Below, one piece after another: positions 1-27,575 of a stretch of 64,000 nt of DNA (within the stretch, counting starts at the first letter, position 1; every line of letters begins with the position of its first letter). The stretch is from positions 64,542,001-64,606,000 of the forward strand of contig OX597816.1 of NCBI GenBank assembly GCA_951406725.2, given 5' to 3'. The position numbers and the translations under genes are program-made. The DNA is from Octopus vulgaris. Lineage: Eukaryota. The notes beneath the pieces are model-generated. The model was given only the letters and a program-made list of their open reading frames with translations, did not search any database and had not been told where the DNA came from.

Positions 1-280
1 TGTGTTAACATGTGACATTATTGACCGAGGTTACCGTGGTCTTTTCCATAGACATTTCTTTCCACGGATAAACCTTATCTGCTTCCCCCTTTATACTTTA
101 CATCATGACATTTCTGTGATACACGATCCCTATTGATGTTTTAGTTTTTTACGATCCCTTTTGAACGAAAACCTACCCCCTTTTTATTTTTATTTTTTCT
201 ACCCAAAAAGAAAAGCTCTACTTTGTAATTTGTCCCCCCTCCCCGTCTTCAGCCCTGTTGGCTAAAGAAACATATTGTAT
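1..280 (+). mobile_element. Probable 3' UTR/tail of a non-LTR retrotransposon
   Basis: Pyrimidine-rich tail ending CAGCCCTGTTGGCTAAAGAAA, similar to the ...GCCCCTTGTGGGTAGTAAAGAAA tail of the CORE-type SINEs in this window; no ORF. Confidence 0.3.
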
Positions 281-8942: not shown

Positions 8943-9790
8943 ATCTCTTTATCTCTTTTCTATCTCTTTCTCATTCTCTCACAAAAACATACACACGAAC
9001 TATTTTGTGTGTTTCAGCCTTGAGTGTGAAGACTCCCGCCAGAATTCAAATGACCCAGAAAAACCTATGTCACGACTATGTGATTATGACCCGATCAGAA
9101 CATGAAGACCCCACACCACAATGCCGCTATCGATTTCATTTGATAATGATGTTGTTCCGGGTCCGGAGGAACTCCACTAAATGAAAGTATGTAAGGAAAA
9201 AACCGCCCCCAGTTATATTTTTGGTGTAGATATACAGTAATCTCCCAACCGACGTTTTCTGTAACGGAGATTCCGATTCTGATAAAAAATCGACGTTTCA
9301 AAGTTTAAATTTCACACTTCCCACCCCAATTTTTCTCAAAGTGTTTTGTTCAAAAATTTCAATTTAAAAATAAAAGAAAGAAGATTGGCACCACCTCTCA
9401 CTCAGCGCACATCCACTCAAATATTCCGGATGTTTTCAAACTCGTTCGCTCACTTACGCATGAGTAGGCGGGAGTTACAGCTGCTTCCACAACCCTAATC
9501 AAATTGTTTAATCATTGGCACTATTTCCATCTCGCTCTAATTCTATGCGTTTTTCATATTGATATAACTTCACGTCAGACGTGATAAGTCACGCCTGAGA
9601 TCAGTGGCGCTCCACTAGAGACCATACGTTATTTATCAGTCATTATATATATTTCTTTACTGCCCACAAGGGGCTAAACATAGAGGGGGCAAACAGGGAC
9701 AGACAAAGGGATTAAGTCTATTACATCGACTCCAGTGCGGAATAAAAGAAGATACTATTTTGACTAGACTATATAATGACTGATAAATAG

Positions 9791-10021
9791 GGCGGCGAGC
9801 TGGCACAAACGTTAGCACGCCGGGCGAAATGCTTATCAATATTTCGTCTGTCTTTACATTCTGAGTTCAAATTCCGCCGAGGTCGACTTTGCCTTTCATC
9901 CTTTCGGGGTCGATAAATTAAGTACCAGTTTCGCACTGGGGTCGATGTGATCGACTTAATCCCTTCGTCTGTCCTTGTTTGTCCCCATCTATGTTTAGCC
10001 CCTTGTGGGTAGTAAAGAAAT
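9791..10021 (+). mobile_element. tRNA-derived CORE-type SINE family B (Octopus OR-like), full length
   Basis: A-box-like GAGCTGGCACAAACGTTAG, B-box GAGTTCAAATTCC, body GTCGACTTTGCCTTTCATCCTTTCGGGGTCGATAAA, tail GCCCCTTGTGGGTAGTAAAGAAA; many copies in the window. Confidence 0.9.
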
Positions 10022-10041
10022 ATATATGTAAATATATATAT

Positions 10042-10088
<47 letters not shown>

Positions 10089-10450
10089 ATGAATGTATGT
10101 ATATATATACATATATATATATATATTTATAAAATGTAATATTTTGAATTCGCCTTAAATGGTCCCTTTACATACTGAATACTTGGTGAAATTGATTAAT
10201 AATTAATTAATTTTACCCTCAATTGTTGAAATTATAATTCATTTCTCTCTGTTTAATGCTTCGGTTTTCACCGATAAAATTATGGTGTTTGCTAGATTAG
10301 ACCACGTGGGTGGAAAGGGGAGGGCAGAAATTCTTCGCTTGCATTTTTTGAATTTGTTGGCACTGTTAGTCTGAACGGATCTTCGGAGGTGAAAAGTCGC
10401 CAAAAGGGTATGCTCCTACTTTCAGTGTTTACAAATCCGAATTAAGGAAT

Positions 10451-10512
10451 TTTGGGCTGACGAAAGAAATGTCGAATTGTATTTGGCTGATCTAGAAACG
10501 TACGTTCTCAAA
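10451..10512 (+). ncRNA. Type I hammerhead ribozyme motif (unit 1)
   Basis: Stem I TTTGGG/CTCAAA; core CTGACGA; stem II AGA..GTCGAAT-tgt-ATTTGGC..TCT; GAAAC; palindromic stem III AACGTACGTT; GUU triplet; non-canonical A.A at the base of stem II. Confidence 0.7.
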
Positions 10513-11018
10513 TAACCTTTGCATTTGTGATTTTTTAATGTTTTTACCCCCATACCTTCGTGGGCTATTCTGAGTAAGCACTATCTGAGAGAAATTTTCT
10601 TTAAGTATTAGAATTCGGTTAAAAAAATTTTTTTTTGGCTGCTATTTCTAATGAGTTCAGTATGTGGCAAAGTAATTTATTTTACTAAGCCCTTTATAAA
10701 ATGTAATATTTTGAATTCGCCTTAAATGGTCCCTTTACATACTGAATACTTGGTGAAATTGATTAATAATTAATTAATTTTACCCTCAATTGTTGAAATT
10801 ATAATTCATTTCTCTCTGTTTAATGCTTCGGTTTTCACCGATAAAATTATGGTGTTTGCTAGATTAGACCACGTGGGTGGAAAGAGGAGGGCAGAAATTC
10901 TTCGCTTGCATATTTTGAATTTGTTGGCACTGTTAGTCTGAACGGATCTTCGGAGGTGAAAAGTCGCCAAAAGGGTATGCTCCTACTTTCAGTGTTTACA
11001 AATCCGAATTAAGGAATA

Positions 11019-11078
11019 TTGGGCTGACGAAAGAAATGTCGAATTGTATTTGGCTGATCTAGAAACGTACGTTCTCAA
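11019..11078 (+). ncRNA. Type I hammerhead ribozyme motif (unit 2)
   Basis: Same core and stems II/III as 10451-10512, 567 bp downstream; stem I TTGGG/CTCAA. Confidence 0.7.
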
Positions 11079-11365
11079 ATAACCTTTGCATTTGTGATTT
11101 TTTAATGTTTTTACCCCCATACCTTCGTGGGCTATTCTGAGTAAGCACTATCTGAGAGAAATTTTCTTTAAGTATTAGAATTCGGCTAAAAAAATTTTTT
11201 TTTTGGCTGCTATTTCTAATGAGTTCAGTATGTGGCAAAGTAATTTATTTTACTAAGCCCTTTATAAAATGTAATATTTTGAATTCGCCTTAAATGGTCC
11301 CTTTACATACTGAATACTTGGTGAAATTGATTAATAATTAATTAATTTTACCCTCAATTGTTGAA

Positions 11366-14300
11366 CTAGGCTTTAATTATAGTTAGTCTTTATTGATATT
11401 TCTTTGTTTTAATTAGTTCATTTTTAATGTATATTAATTTAACAGTTTATGGTATGTTAAAACTTTAATAATTTATATTAGATTTTTTTATTTTCTTTAT
11501 TTATATATTTTTTTATTTTTTTATTTTTTTATTTTTATTTTATTTTATTATGTATTTTTATTATGCATTTGTTATATGTATTTTGGAGGATATATTTATT
11601 TGTTGATGGGTGTTATTTAGTGGTGTTTTTATTGAGTTTTGTATGTATGTGTGAATGTTTATGATCCCTTTGTTTTTTATTTGGTATGTTGAATTGACAG
11701 ATTTTATTTGGGTATTGTCTGTTATAATAAAGTACACACACCCATAACAAATATAAGTGCCCACTTCATTCGCTGTACCTGGAATTGCATGTGAGCCTCA
11801 ACATATACACCTAACGGCCACTCCCGCCCCACACGGATAAATAAACACATACATCCCCAAAAATGGGCGTAATCCCACTCACACCAATCATATGTATACA
11901 ATTATACACACTAGAATAATACATAACTAACCCAAATATACAGAACATACCAAAAATCACCAACTAACCACCATCACAAATGAAACCCACACCCATACAA
12001 TGACAAAACTCCCCCCTCCATACCCAATTTACACCCACATAGCAATCCCAATATATTCATCCATACATTGACGCACGTGCGTGAAGCACATGCACACAAT
12101 AAATACGTACAACCCCCCAATACACACTCATATACATACGTATCAAGCTCGACATCCACAGCGATACGCTTACACCCACTCACACCCAGATGGGTGAATT
12201 GCACAACCAGGGAACGCACACACACACGTGTGCGTTTTTTGATTGTGCAACTCGCCCATATGCATGTATGCGGGCGCGATTACATTGTTGCATATATCGA
12301 GCCCAAATAGCATGCATATGTACATGTGAGGGGGTACACGCAAATGACGTGCGCGTGTACCCCCTGCATTTATACCCGTGCGTGAATATACACATGGAGA
12401 CTACTACACAGGTATAAATGTGTATAGTAATGGGAGCCCCATCACTACACTCAATGTATACTCTCACCCATCCGCACGGATGTGAAAGTGAATCTCCGGT
12501 GTATATGTTGAGGCTTATATGTAGCGCTGTGGAGGCGAACGTCGTTGAAATTGTGAATGAATGGGTGGAGTTGGGAATTGTAACCGGGTGGTGGACTAGC
12601 GTTGCTTGGAATTGTGAATGGAATAGTGTAGTAGTGAGGTAGGCATCGAGAATAGGTTTGGGTTACTGCAAGTTGTTTGTTAGAGCTGCTAAGGTGAGCT
12701 AAAGCTCATAAATGTATATAATGATTTTGCATGGTAGTTTTTTAAAGAATCCATTCATAATAAATTTTTTTAAGTAGTGTTGGTTTGCCACGTGGATATA
12801 GTTTTTAGTTCCATTTATTCTATTTCTCCATTCATAATTTAAATGACGTTTACTTTCCATGGCGCGTATTCTTTTTTTAACATAAGTTATTTCTATGGTA
12901 ACGTAATTTTGGTTTAATTTTTTTAACGGCTAAGAATTTAATTTCACTTCATAATTTGAAACTGACTTGTAAGTATGTATTTTATTTATCCTTATGTCAT
13001 ATTGTTATTTTTGATATTCTGGTTAATTACGATGTATTTAATGTTGTTTTCATAGGAGTGTTTATGTATATGAGATTGTGTGTGAGTTTTTAGTTGTATA
13101 ATTTATTTATCTGTATGAGTGTGGGTGTGTAAATATTGTTGTATATATTGAGTTTAGTGAGTATGTATATGCGTATATGTGAGGGAGTATATGTATCTGT
13201 TCTGTGTGTGTGTTTTGCGTGTGTGTGTGTTTGTGTGTGAATGTGTATATGGGTTTGTTATTTAGGTTTTGGGATGTATGTGTTAATTTGTCTGTGTGGG
13301 GAGGGAGTGGGTTTTGGTGTATATTGAGGTTTATAAGTTAGTATAGGTATGTGTATAAGTCGTGGGTCTGAGGTTTATGTGTGTGTATTTGTGTGTGAAT
13401 GTTTAGGTTAGGGGGATTGCTATATAGGTTTGTTATAGAGTTTAGCAAAGGGAGATTTTATCGTTATATGTTTTTAAGAGTTTTGGTTTATCATGGTTTT
13501 TTTAGGGAATTCGTGGTAATTTGTCTATTTTCGATGTTGGTTGTTTTATTACATTGTTTCATTCATAATTTTTGAGTGGTGTTCGTTTTGCCACGTGAAT
13601 ATTATTTTTAATTCCATTTATTCCATTTCTCCATTCATTAATTTAGAGATGTTCGTTTCCAGAGTGGTTATACTTTTTATACATATGTTAAGTTCCTTGG
13701 TAAAGTAATTTTGTTTGGTGTATATGTTGAGGCTTATATGTACTTGTGGGTGTGTGTGAGTGGGGTGGGTGTTTGTATTTGTTATGGGTGTGTGGTTTAT
13801 GTGTGTGTATTTGTGTGTGAATGTATAGGTTAAAGGGATTGCTATATAAGTATGTTATAGTGTTTAGTAAAGGGAGGTTTTATCATTTCTGTTTTGTGAG
13901 TTTTAGATTATCATGGTAGTTTTATAAAAGAATCCATTCATAATTTTTGTGTTTTTTTGTCTGTGTGGGGTTGAGTGGGTTTTTGGAGTATATGTTGAGG
14001 TTTATATGTATGTATTGGTATGTGTAAGTGGTGTGGGTATTTGTATATGTCGTGGGTGTGTGGTTTACGTGTGTGTATTTGTGTGTGAATGTTTAGGTTA
14101 GGGGGATTGCTATATAGGTATGTTATAGAGTTTAGTAAAGGGAGATTTTATCATTATATGTTTTTATGAGTTTTGGTTTATCATGGTGGGTTTGTTAAGG
14201 AATTCGTAGTAATTTGTGTCTATTTGCGATGTCTGTTGTTTTATTGCATTATTTCATTCATAATTTTTAAGTAGTGTTCGTTTTACCAAGTGAATATAAT

Positions 14301-15032
14301 TTTTAATTCCATTTATTCCATTTCTCCGTTCATAATTTTGAGTGATGTCCGTTTTCTAGAGCGTGAATGTGGGTTGTATGTGTGTGTGTGTGGGAGTATG
14401 AATAAGTATTGTCTTGAAGTATTTAGCTATTTTATTTATTTATAGTTGCCTAGACGTTTTTATGTGTATGTATAGGGATATATATATATAGGTGTGTGAT
14501 TTAGTGTATGTAGTTAGATATGGTTATATATAATTAGGTATATGTGTATGGGTGTATATATAGTTTATTATTATATTATTATTATTTTTTTGTTTTGTTT
14601 TATATTTTATATTTTATATTTTATATTTTATATTTTATATTTAATTGTTGATAGGTTTATTTTAGTTTATATATTGTTTATATATTGATTATATATGGAT
14701 TATATATAGGTTATATATGGATTATATATTTATATTTTTTCATTCATACTTTAATTATTTTAAAATTATTATTTTTATATTTTAAAATATTGATATTTTA
14801 GATTGGAAGTCCACCTGAAGATTGTCGATCAAGACAAGAAACGATTGTAGTGGCGGTTTTTTTTACTATTTATTAAAATTTTATGTATTGATTAAGTCTT
14901 TCCTTGTTTGTTTTGCAAAATAGTGGTTTTGTCTCTAATAATATTTTATAATATTTTACTATAAAATTGGATTTAATCCTAAATCTGATTTTTTTCCCTG
15001 TAAATTTGGATTTATTCCCTAATATTTATTAT
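11366..15032 (+). mobile_element. Long non-coding, strand-skewed element with internal direct and inverted repeats and a 3' hammerhead; putative non-autonomous Penelope-like element
   Basis: C/A-rich block ~11730-12480 is an inverted paralogue of the G/T-rich blocks in 12498-14060; direct repeats at ~13372/13794/14062 and ~12754/13561/14255; ends at (TA)n near 15033. Confidence 0.6.
14811..14853 (+). ncRNA. Minimal type I hammerhead ribozyme, all core nucleotides intact
   Basis: CCAC-CTGAAGA-TTGTC-gatcaa-GACAA-GAAAC-gatt-GTA-GTGG: stem I CCAC/GTGG, stem II TTGTC/GACAA, near-palindromic stem III ACGATTGT, GUA cleavage triplet. Confidence 0.85.
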
Positions 15033-17224
15033 TTATATATATATATATATATATATGTATACATACATATATTGCACACATGCTATAGGCATCCACATAA
15101 TTCCAGACAACCAAATTCACTCACAAGGCATTCTTCGTTCCGGGGCTATAGAAGAAGACGTTTTGCCCAAAGTACCGGAGATTGGCACTAGAACTGCGCC
15201 CGTATGGCTGGAAATCGAACTTCTTCGCCTCAGTTTTGCCTCCAACTATATACTTTTAAAAAAGTTTTCTTACGTTTCGCTGTTGTTTCTTTCATAGATC
15301 CTCACTATAAATATTAATTCATATTTTGCTTTCAATCTCTATACTTTCTGAAAAATGTATCTCTATTAAACGATAAGCTATTGTTTCTGGTTATCTTAAA
15401 CTGTTCTTTTCATTTTTACATTTTATTTGAAATCAATTGTACGTGAATTATTTAAACGCATACATCTGTCCTTTCCGCATTTTTCTTATGAATATTTCTT
15501 TAGACAAAGTTTGGCGTCACTGGCTTTTTACATCTAAAATCTAATACCAAGCAATCAAACTATACTCGGGCAGACTCTGGTTCACTGCTGCGGTATACTA
15601 GTGGAGAAAAACCTTCGTAGATTTCGCCTAACTGGCGAGCAAAAACCAGGTTCCTACACAAGACATGAAACTTTGTTTCTTTCTAAGTGTGTGCATGTGT
15701 GTACCTGTGTATGCATGCATGTGTGTATGTGAAATTAAAAACGAGTCTATTTTTGTTCGGAATAGTTAATTAACGCTAGTTCTGTTTTAATGTTTCTCCA
15801 ATTAAAGATAAATTACAATTCATTTAGAATGTTTCTTTCCTTCAGCCATTCAGAACATTCAGAGTTAATTCTCTTAGCTCCTTCTTCATAACCAATAATA
15901 ACATGTTCGGTACCCTTCACAATATATTCTGACTGGTATTTGCTTAATAGACCTCAACACACACACGCACACATTCACACATGCACACACACATACACAC
16001 ATATATGCTATGTCTGCGTGTGTCAGTATTCGTATTTTGTACTAAAACTTTTGCTTTTATTTATTAGGTAATTTTTATTAATTTATCTTAGAATTAAAAC
16101 CATTACACTCATCAGCTCTTTTAGAAGAAGCTGCCAAACTTTATTGTAGAAAGTGCAGAATACACTACCGCTGATGTGCTGCCTGAATTTGAAAAAGTGC
16201 ATCAAGATCTCTTCAGACGGGAGTACACTTCCAAATGCTAACAAGAGAAACGATTCTGCTAAAGGCATCCATTGGATAGCTGCTAGTATTAAACAAAGAT
16301 TATATTAAATCTTACTCAAATACTCAATAAAATTCCAAACACTTTCGTCGACTCGATATCATTCAAGGCTTTTATCAAATGAAGGACACTACAAGATATA
16401 CTCCTCGCAATGCGTAGTGCAGCGTGGCGGTGGGCAAGCCCGGATGTACGTGATTGCAAATCTAACTTCTTAACCAGACAGCCATGACCGCGCGCATTTA
16501 CTATCTTAGTATAATCACTTGCACCCTGCAATTCATAAAAGCTGAAAGTAAATTGAAGTAAAATTTTCTCTCTTACATCAAACAGAGATTTGAAGCAGAA
16601 AGTAATTTCCTGTGGATATTAACATCTCCAGATAGCTCAAGTCTTTGTTTATGTTAATGCATTTCTAGATAGTTATATTTAAATGGAATCTTTCTGCTTA
16701 CTTAGCATTCTCCTCTTGCTTCGATTGGCATATATCATTTATTCCCATTTCACACTTTCTTGCCACAACTAACGTCTTTTTCTGACTAGCTATCAATAAG
16801 GTTGAAGAATTGATTCCCATGTTTAACAATAAATTTAGCATTTATTCTTATCCATGACCTCTGATTTCTTTCATTACTTCTAATATCTATTTGAAATCGA
16901 TGTATACAATCCATTAATACATGCGCTGCATGATGGTTGCTTGATTAGAAAGTTCGCTTGGGAATCTGCAGTTGTGGATGCGATCTTGCTACGTGACACC
17001 GAATGCGAGTGTCATTTACCGTAGCCGTTTTTTACAGAATATATTTTGAATGAAATATGGGAGGATGGAGACTATACAGAAGCCTGTCATATGCTTGTTC
17101 ATTATTGTTTTATTATTTTATATTTTACTTATTTCAGCCGTTGACCTTCGGCATAACCGGGAGTACAATCTCTAAGGGTTTATCCCTGCACACACACACA
17201 CACACACACACATACGTACATATA

Positions 17225-26986: not shown

Positions 26987-27575
26987 GGCGGCGAGCTGGC
27001 GGAAACGTTAGCGCGCCGGGCGAAATTATTAGTGGTATTTCGTCTGCCGTTACGTTCTGAGTTTAAATTCCGCCGAGGTCGACTTTGCCTTTCATCCTTT
27101 CGGGGTCGATAAATTAAGTACCAGTTACGCTCTGGGGTCGATCTAATCGACCTAATCCGTGTGTCTGTCCTTGTTTATCCTCTCTATGTTTTGCCCCTTG
27201 TGGGTAGTAAAGAAATAGGTATTTCGTCTGCTGCTACGTTCTGAGTTCAAATTCCGCCGAGGTCGACTTTGCCTTTCGTCCTTTCGGAGTCGATTAAATA
27301 AGTACCAGTTACGCACTGGGGGTCGATATAATTGTCTTAATCCCTTTGTCTCCTCTGTGTTTAGCCCCTTGTGGGTAGTAAAGAAATAGGTATTTCCTCT
27401 GCCGTTGCGTTCTGAGTTCAAATTCCGCCGAGGTCGTCTTTGCCTTTCATCATTTCGGGGTCGATAAATTAAGTACCAGTTACGCACTGGGGTCGATATA
27501 ATCGACTTAATATTTTTGTCTGTCCTTGATTGTCTCTTCTATGTTTAGCCCCTTGTGGGCAATAAAGAAATAAGA
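26987..27575 (+). mobile_element. SINE family B: one full copy plus two headless tandem copies
   Basis: Body repeats rejoin at AAAGAAATA|GGTATTTC at ~27218 and ~27389. Confidence 0.9.

Follow-up and report, generated by a model that had tools for sequence, protein, structure and literature searches.

Sense-strand A to G substitutions in the inverted arms of a Hydra-clade Penelope-like element of Octopus vulgaris, a likely product of RNA editing copied back into DNA

The window analyzed in this study is a stretch of 64,000 nucleotides from Octopus vulgaris (GenBank assembly GCA_951406725.2, contig OX597816.1, positions 64,542,001 to 64,606,000 of the forward strand). Judged from its sequence, the part from 11366 to about 15038 is the 5'-truncated 3' untranslated region (UTR), of ~3.7 kb, of a Hydra-clade retrotransposon of the Penelope-like element (PLE) type. 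This part is a dispersed repeat with 565 candidate matches in the animal's own 2.8-Gb genome; 40 were scored at 92–100% identity. The tail of this autonomous element carries inherited A to G substitutions on the sense strand of its inverted arms, which we attribute, with a probability of about 0.8, to editing of the folded RNA by a host ADAR and subsequent copying of inosine as G by the element's reverse transcriptase (RT). A sequence-only reading of the window had proposed a non-coding element at 11730–14853, regarded as a non-autonomous retroelement or structured long non-coding RNA and delimited by ribozyme cuts at 11073 and 14849 (~3.8 kb).

Similarity to the UTR was used to fetch 37 copies, whose homology with the window begins at or after 11366 and stops near 14950 or 15040, and the bounds of 11730–14853 are replaced by 11366 to about 15038. 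At least 1.5 kb of an open reading frame (ORF) lies upstream in 18 of these 37 copies, intact frames of 838–862 codons are present at five loci (L016, L021, L023, L024, and L043), and inverted and partial tandem copies often lie upstream as well. Because an RT-endonuclease ORF, intact at 837 residues, precedes the UTR in other copies, the element is not non-autonomous, and its reading as a long non-coding RNA is not supported; what stands of the earlier proposal is a retroelement RNA with long sense-strand duplexes. The element also differs from coding-free tandem retrozymes, in that 18 of 37 copies have the ORF and the motif at 11073 comes from another family, a 567-bp repeat. A 3.8-kb RNA from 11073 to 14849 is therefore at most a feature of this locus, and the element's own ribozyme-to-ribozyme unit measures ~6.3 kb (5.6–6.8 kb), ~3.8 kb of which lies past the stop codon. 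Cutting by a PLE hammerhead was found to be dispensable for insertion (PMC11167929), which is a further reason why ribozyme sites need not be RNA ends. The longest stop-to-stop frame in 9000–17000 of the window is 160 residues. An initial guess that the locus was a mitochondrial control-region insertion was dropped after the upstream ORF had emerged in other copies.

The 837-residue ORF (P0001) was aligned with 14 homologues. It contains QIDID, YRDD (359), and YIG (730) motifs, which point to an RT followed by a C-terminal GIY-YIG-type endonuclease, together with KWK at 43 (RWK or RWR in most homologues), DKT at 128, CxCx5C at 688, CxxC at 794, and CxH at 823. No cysteine pair (no CCHH) was present between the two GIY-YIG core motifs in this alignment. 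Pfam returned nothing significant for P0001 and four homologues, so that the RT and endonuclease assignments rest on the motifs. One protein homologue is named from Octopus bimaculoides. TA-rich repeats follow the 3' end in all 12 copies inspected, and the ORF motifs, the (TA)n target, and the hammerhead match the description of the Hydra clade in PMC8557442, a clade to which the element would accordingly be assigned; the length of less than 3 kb that this source gives as a typical trait, not as a strict criterion, is exceeded here. The hammerhead predicted at the end of the element in the sequence-only reading is present (Table 1), and its core and stems are conserved across subfamilies with a variable loop II, although it was found in only one of the five most distant copies inspected (L055). 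The automated hammerhead pattern overlooked several subfamilies as well as the motif of the 567-bp repeat. Rfam at the gathering score gave no ribozyme family over the window, and by E-value it gave no ribozyme family over 10000–15200, only weak microRNA-like matches. Residues ~505–610 of P0001 form an asparagine/lysine-rich low-complexity insert of about 100 residues between the RT and the linker that is missing from most homologues.

The short pairings on which the sequence-only reading was built were confirmed exactly, none of them with an A.C mismatch: 11737–11764 with 13765–13792 (24 Watson-Crick pairs and 4 G.U), 11787–11811 with 13717–13741 and with the identical 12498–12522 (22 Watson-Crick pairs and 3 G.U each), and an 8-mer near 11835 with a partner near 13286 (6 Watson-Crick pairs and 2 G.U). 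A strand-neutral duplex search, in which G.U and A.C were scored alike, extended these pairings. The strongest arm of the window had been overlooked; it pairs 12525–12725 with 13460–13666 through 114 Watson-Crick pairs, 63 G.U, 3 A.C, and 16 other apposed positions. The arm at 11735–11815 has further partners at 13948–14062 and 13290–13390. The arms do not, as had been claimed, differ only by G.U, because the hairpin formed by 11996–12222 and 12227–12449 has 130 Watson-Crick pairs, 15 G.U, 57 A.C, and 21 others, and longer alignments contain transversion mismatches. G.U thus exceeds A.C in most arms (16:0 and 63:3), with the reverse in this one hairpin (57 A.C to 15 G.U). Arm alignment scores of 108 and 123 compare with best shuffled scores of 34 and 31 (40 local shuffles each), so that the pairing itself is far above chance. 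Folding of both strands of 11366–14960 gave predicted energies of -1004 kcal/mol for the plus strand and -642 kcal/mol for the minus strand.

The 33 loci fetched by protein similarity include L076, which the ORF tree places as sister to the clade of the window and which holds window positions 11735–12725 in the reversed orientation. In L076, the reversed block is a 431-bp sense-strand hairpin with 253 Watson-Crick pairs, 169 G.U, 1 A.C, and 8 others. Four more copies have a hairpin of this type, and the five copies, on four contigs, have 156–171 G.U and 0–3 A.C. The outgroup L074 carries an unpaired homologue of one arm and has A at 41 of the 42 U.G columns and T at 78 of the 78 G.U columns of the L076 hairpin, which indicates that the wobbles of L076 are derived from A-U and not from G-C pairs. 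On the two arms, A has changed to G at 40 of 72 and 79 of 136 adenosines (56% and 58%), with 11 other changes, and in the unpaired control, three UTR segments of the same two copies, at 0 of 358. When the five hairpin copies are compared with four unpaired outgroup copies, 107–115 A to G changes are seen among 200–205 adenosines, and T to C changes number at most 1 in 205. Of the A to G changes, 98 are common to all five hairpin copies and represent one inherited burst; a few were added later.

The same bias is present in a tree of 43 UTRs, composed of the window and those 42 loci, out of 70, that gave a collinear match. Its internal branches have 67 A to G and 8 T to C changes; A to G affects 61 of 461 adenosines in duplex columns as compared with 6 of 256 outside them (p 3e-7). 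Counts from the tree are approximate, since recombination occurs among the copies and the sample was chosen by best score. Synonymous sites in 46 ORFs, with the low-complexity linker excluded, are symmetric (A to G at 16 of 210, T to C at 33 of 427), and the A/G divergence is 0.063–0.095 in duplex columns, 0.016–0.021 in unpaired UTR, and 0.002–0.004 at synonymous sites. Duplexes are perfect at birth: L063 contains a copy-specific palindrome with Watson-Crick pairs at 373 of 373 positions. Inverted copies made at insertion have 58 G.U and 47 A.C over 26 loci. By the 5' neighbor of the changed A, the values are 0.61 for U, 0.56 for A, 0.40 for C, and 0.31 for G (four-way p 0.005), and this order of U>A>C>G agrees with the preference of ADAR in vitro. 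A 5' G is depleted at the changed A (8/26 versus 155/283, p 0.02), and upstream G depletion is a shared ADAR motif (PMC5625713). In the window block of the sequence-only reading, 9 of 12 polarizable wobbles come from A to G, and 4 more did not resolve. The collection of further genomic copies thus yielded a strand-specific A to G excess with a 5' neighbor bias, for which that reading had proposed a test, and the pattern, confined to A to G, to the sense strand, and to duplex arms, with ORF and unpaired controls, matches the signature of ADAR editing.

Inversion of the block provides a separate view of the process. After the flip, the number of A.C oppositions in the hairpin is 76–86 in older copies and 55–66 in younger ones, and in the newly created duplex G.U climbs from 6–20 to 25–33 (both for the 7 of 43 copies displayed). 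With A.C being lost and new G.U being gained, the bias follows whichever strand is sense. On this sequence comparison, the A.C-rich hairpin of the window is the relic of a G.U-saturated hairpin that was flipped after its conversion.

These observations can be arranged in a single scheme. Inverted and tandem duplications arise in the UTR, presumably by template switching of the element's RT, and start as perfect palindromes of the kind seen in L063. The sense RNA would fold as predicted, an ADAR acting in the germline would deaminate about half of the paired adenosines, and the RT would read inosine as G and fix the edits in daughter copies. Lineages that went on transposing have ~55% of the paired adenosines on both arms changed to G, with unpaired adenosines left as they were, and the flip of a block turned its G.U into A.C, with new A to G changes then accruing on the new sense strand. 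The fixation of ADAR edits by reverse transcription was the second of two alternatives in the sequence-only reading, and the polarized, duplex-restricted A to G changes support it. Tandem duplications within the UTR are seen in several sub-lineages, as a repeat of window 12459–14204 in L023, L025, L027, L028, L036, L048, and L049 and of window 12680–13768 in L032 and L034; they measure 1.1–1.7 kb, so that the tail is still growing.

The first alternative in that reading was selection for pairing. If the tail were a functional RNA scaffold, selection would keep the arms paired, so that only changes giving G.U would survive and no special mutagen would be needed. Transversion mismatches are indeed few in the L076 hairpin (8 of 431) and somewhat rarer in duplex columns, and most subfamilies have long hairpins just downstream of the ORF. 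However, the A/G divergence of the duplexes exceeds both neutral references, by ~4-fold for unpaired UTR and by more than 20-fold for synonymous ORF sites, which makes purifying selection alone insufficient. Changes from G-C to G.U would be tolerated equally well, yet they are nearly absent in L076; repair of G.U to G-C is very rare, the arms vary among subfamilies, and a flip of 1 kb was tolerated. We consider a scaffold improbable. G.U wobbles suppress bystander editing by ADAR (PMC11994451), so that a G.U-rich state would be self-limiting. Most likely, the tail has built up by accretion and is tolerated, and its richness in G.U restricts additional editing.

A general strand-asymmetric process, such as deamination that accompanies transcription or wobble misincorporation while the sense strand is made, would produce A to G and C to T throughout the element, and any inverted repeat would then read as G.U. 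In its favor, sense-strand C to T is elevated both within duplexes and elsewhere and exceeds G to A at synonymous sites (27 of 54 versus 12 of 56, p 0.003), the UTRs are poor in C, and shuffled sequences reproduce much of the G.U:A.C ratio. It is the likely source of the C to T part of the changes. For A to G, it is contradicted by the 0 of 358 changes in unpaired UTR, by the symmetry in the ORF, and by the single hairpin-restricted burst of 98 shared changes, and it is very unlikely to account for the arms. Least probable is a structure-specific agent other than ADAR, either the RT of the element misreading adenosines in hairpins or another adenosine deaminase. The lack of a significant 3' neighbor preference would allow for it, and ADAR is the enzyme that we infer; both arms, however, are altered equally (56% and 58%), the order of 5' neighbors fits ADAR, and coleoid ADARs are broadly expressed and edit repeats (PMC9068888).

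ADAR editing therefore remains the preferred origin of the A to G changes, and several results weigh against it. The G.U share, G.U/(G.U + A.C), is 1.00 and 0.95 in the two arms tested, and composition-matched shuffles give ~0.81, so that the ratio alone is modest evidence (p 0.02 and 0.003); it is no higher than composition predicts in 5 of 9 hairpins, and long duplexes are missing from 3 of the 17 subfamily UTRs. C to T outnumbers A to G among the internal changes of the youngest lineage (63 of 191 versus 19) and in the flipped block (33 versus 29), and it is the source of 3 of the 12 polarizable wobbles in the block of the sequence-only reading. The hairpin of L066 predates the split of its relatives, which already have G at 55 of 68 U.G columns, and cannot be polarized to A to G. 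The cleanest set has no significant 3' neighbor preference (p 0.43). Private variants have a slight A to G excess (1.48 versus 1.05 per 1000) that is uninformative, and contigs covering ORF and UTR, drawn from three presumed RNA runs and a fourth run, have no A to G excess relative to L023; these contigs are unstranded, lack level information, and were not used as evidence. Polarity by majority and by a first parsimony analysis was misleading on G to A before an outer outgroup was available: parsimony was wrong for 21 of 25 G to A events in the flipped block before L076 served as outgroup, and such errors persist elsewhere. In another set, a 3' A had the highest value (0.35 versus 0.15–0.27), and a downstream A has been reported for invertebrate ADAR editing (PMC5625713). 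The C to T excess on the sense strand extends across the whole family, in the UTR and at synonymous ORF sites, independently of pairing, and is dominant in the youngest lineage; this weaker bias, which is not limited to duplexes, contributes a minority of the wobbles. Microsatellite-type hairpins (L114, L061, and L067) were set aside as G.U evidence since shuffles reproduced their bias, and their ratio was not counted.

The coordinates of the features at the locus are collected in Table 1.

Table 1. Features of the window around the truncated element (WC, Watson-Crick; LTR, long terminal repeat)
Feature	Position	Strand	Remarks
5'-truncated Hydra-clade PLE copy (putative), 3' UTR/pseudo-LTR	11366–15038	+	ORF absent; in full copies the ORF ends ~75 nt upstream
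Block reversed in sister subfamily L076	11735–12725	+	Flip dates to the ancestor of the clade that includes the window
Arm	11735–11815	+	Pairs with 13713–13794: 62 WC, 16 G.U, 0 A.C, 3 other
Fold-back hairpin, A.C-rich on the plus strand	11996–12449	+	Relic of a G.U-saturated hairpin later flipped
Arm	12525–12725	+	44 A to G among 56 differences from flipped L076 (changes since the flip); partners 13460–13666, 12689–12865, and 14163–14330
Partner arm of 12525–12725	13460–13666	+	One of three internal direct repeats
Partner arm of 11735–11815	13713–13794	+	One of three internal direct repeats
Type I hammerhead motif of the pseudo-LTR	14811–14853	+	Predicted cut after 14849
(TA)n microsatellite target at the 3' junction	15022–15072		
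Separate element: 2.2 tandem copies of a 567-bp retrozyme-like repeat	10126–11365	+	Hammerhead-like motif 11019–11078
(TA)n microsatellite, 5' side of the composite insertion	10020–10131		

The 567-bp repeat belongs to a family distinct from the PLE, with 1,780 candidate matches, and adjoins only one of the 37 PLE copies selected by UTR (L024). In the window, the array is joined near its own natural 3' end to the truncated PLE. Direct contact between the repeat, at or 6 nt before its natural 3' end, and a 5'-truncated PLE was observed at two loci, namely window 11365/11366 and L024 (oriented positions 1418–1771). Such junctions are explained either by template jumping of the PLE RT or by nested insertion into a shared (TA)n target. 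Copies of the PLE stop at two fixed 3' positions, corresponding to window 14948–14954 and 15036–15040; their spacing of ~90 nt is greater than the tail of 30–40 bp described for PLEs. Two classes of ends, ~58 nt apart, are also seen in the 567-bp family. Two near-complete PLE copies, L014 and L082 (G000:C3:63967142-63985699), are arranged head to head. Copies of a common short interspersed repeat occupy window 9640–10025 and 27034–27511, the latter in tandem with a 171-bp period.

Five other families in the genome were sampled at 20 loci. Three of them have short tails without G.U-leaning hairpins, and another (L107, L108, and L110) has shorter G.U-leaning hairpins. The family of L111–L114, at 32% protein identity, has a tail of ~3 kb that consists largely of TA and TG runs; the tail of L114 contains 386 TG and 17 CA dinucleotides, as compared with 368 and 404 in the window background. 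Most of the differences in its UTR are of the A/G type (82 of 112 and 93 of 138, to give two examples; in the ORF, 13 of 62 and 7 of 33) and are unpolarized. These unpolarized changes suggest that captured (TA)n targets have been edited in the same way as the arms of the window's family. TG greatly outnumbers CA on the sense strand of the L111–L114 3' UTR, which may be a source of strand-biased microsatellite in the genome. All four loci also have two pieces of the 567-bp repeat, one inverted and one direct, with (TA)n after them, ~330–550 nt past the stop codon; this is a captured retrozyme insertion. A very young Hydra family (L115–L118 and many further matches) has dozens of near-identical intact frames of 727 codons and a tail of 1.1 kb. 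As a tentative extension, germline ADAR might be a recurrent heritable mutagen of active retrotransposons, with multi-kilobase tails of Hydra elements, built from their inversions and from captured (TA)n and retrozymes, becoming G.U-saturated and with converted lineages being favored by escape from editing and from double-stranded RNA surveillance. We regard this wider picture as possible and somewhat doubtful; if true, it would also supply the genome with strand-biased TG/TA repeats.

Should the editing origin be correct, RNA editing has been written back into an animal genome and inherited: a single burst in one lineage altered more than half of the adenosines paired within a hairpin, and the element continued to spread. 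The effect of ADAR on transposons has been called unexplored in cephalopods (PMC9068888), and the succession of perfect palindrome, saturated hairpin, and flipped, re-edited block is a dated series for testing germline ADAR activity and its effect on transposons. A literature search, with subscription papers and bioRxiv supplements outside its scope, turned up no account of ADAR-type edits being passed down a lineage of active retrotransposons, nor of long PLE tails rich in G.U. The element also doubles the known size range of Hydra elements, and it serves as a warning that retroelement arms differing only by G.U can be a mutational footprint and are not proof of a selected structure.

Elements of this kind are already known, as are the editing of repeat RNAs by ADAR and the traces that APOBEC leaves in the DNA of retroelements. 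In ADAR-type A to G hypermutation of retroviral genomes, edited RNA is reverse transcribed into DNA in sporadic viral clones, whereas the present case would be a repeated, lineage-level process in a genomic retrotransposon. DNA editing by APOBEC (Zaranek et al. 2010, PMC2873906) similarly leaves clustered substitutions of one type, made by a host deaminase, in genomic copies of retroelements; those are G to A changes from editing of cDNA, and those described here are A to G on the RNA strand, occur in duplexes only, and were passed on as transposition continued. ADAR hyper-editing of repeat transcripts (PMC5625713 and PMC9068888) likewise gives A to G clusters in self-folding repeats with depletion of upstream G; Porath et al. 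2017 (PMC5625713) name a lizard Penelope as undergoing massive editing, and Albertin et al. 2022 (PMC9068888) describe editing of coleoid repeats across all tissues. In those reports the edits are in RNA only, whereas here they are in genomic DNA and common to descendant copies. Non-LTR retrozymes (bioRxiv 10.64898/2026.07.22.740005) fit the tandem 567-bp hammerhead repeat but not the 3.7-kb stretch of the ORF-bearing element. As described by Craig et al. 2021 (PMC8557442), Hydra elements resemble the present one in having a single ORF with an RT, a C-terminal GIY-YIG-type endonuclease, and the motifs xWK, DKT, CxCx5C, CxxC, and CxH, and in having a canonical hammerhead near the 3' end, a (TA)n target, and partial tandem and inverted copies. 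They differ in that the 27 families listed there measure 1.1–3.0 kb, the octopus one 2,507 bp, as compared with ~6.3 kb and a 3.8-kb 3' UTR with G.U-rich fold-backs in the element of the window, whose hammerhead sequence is unlike that of Hydra-1_oBim.

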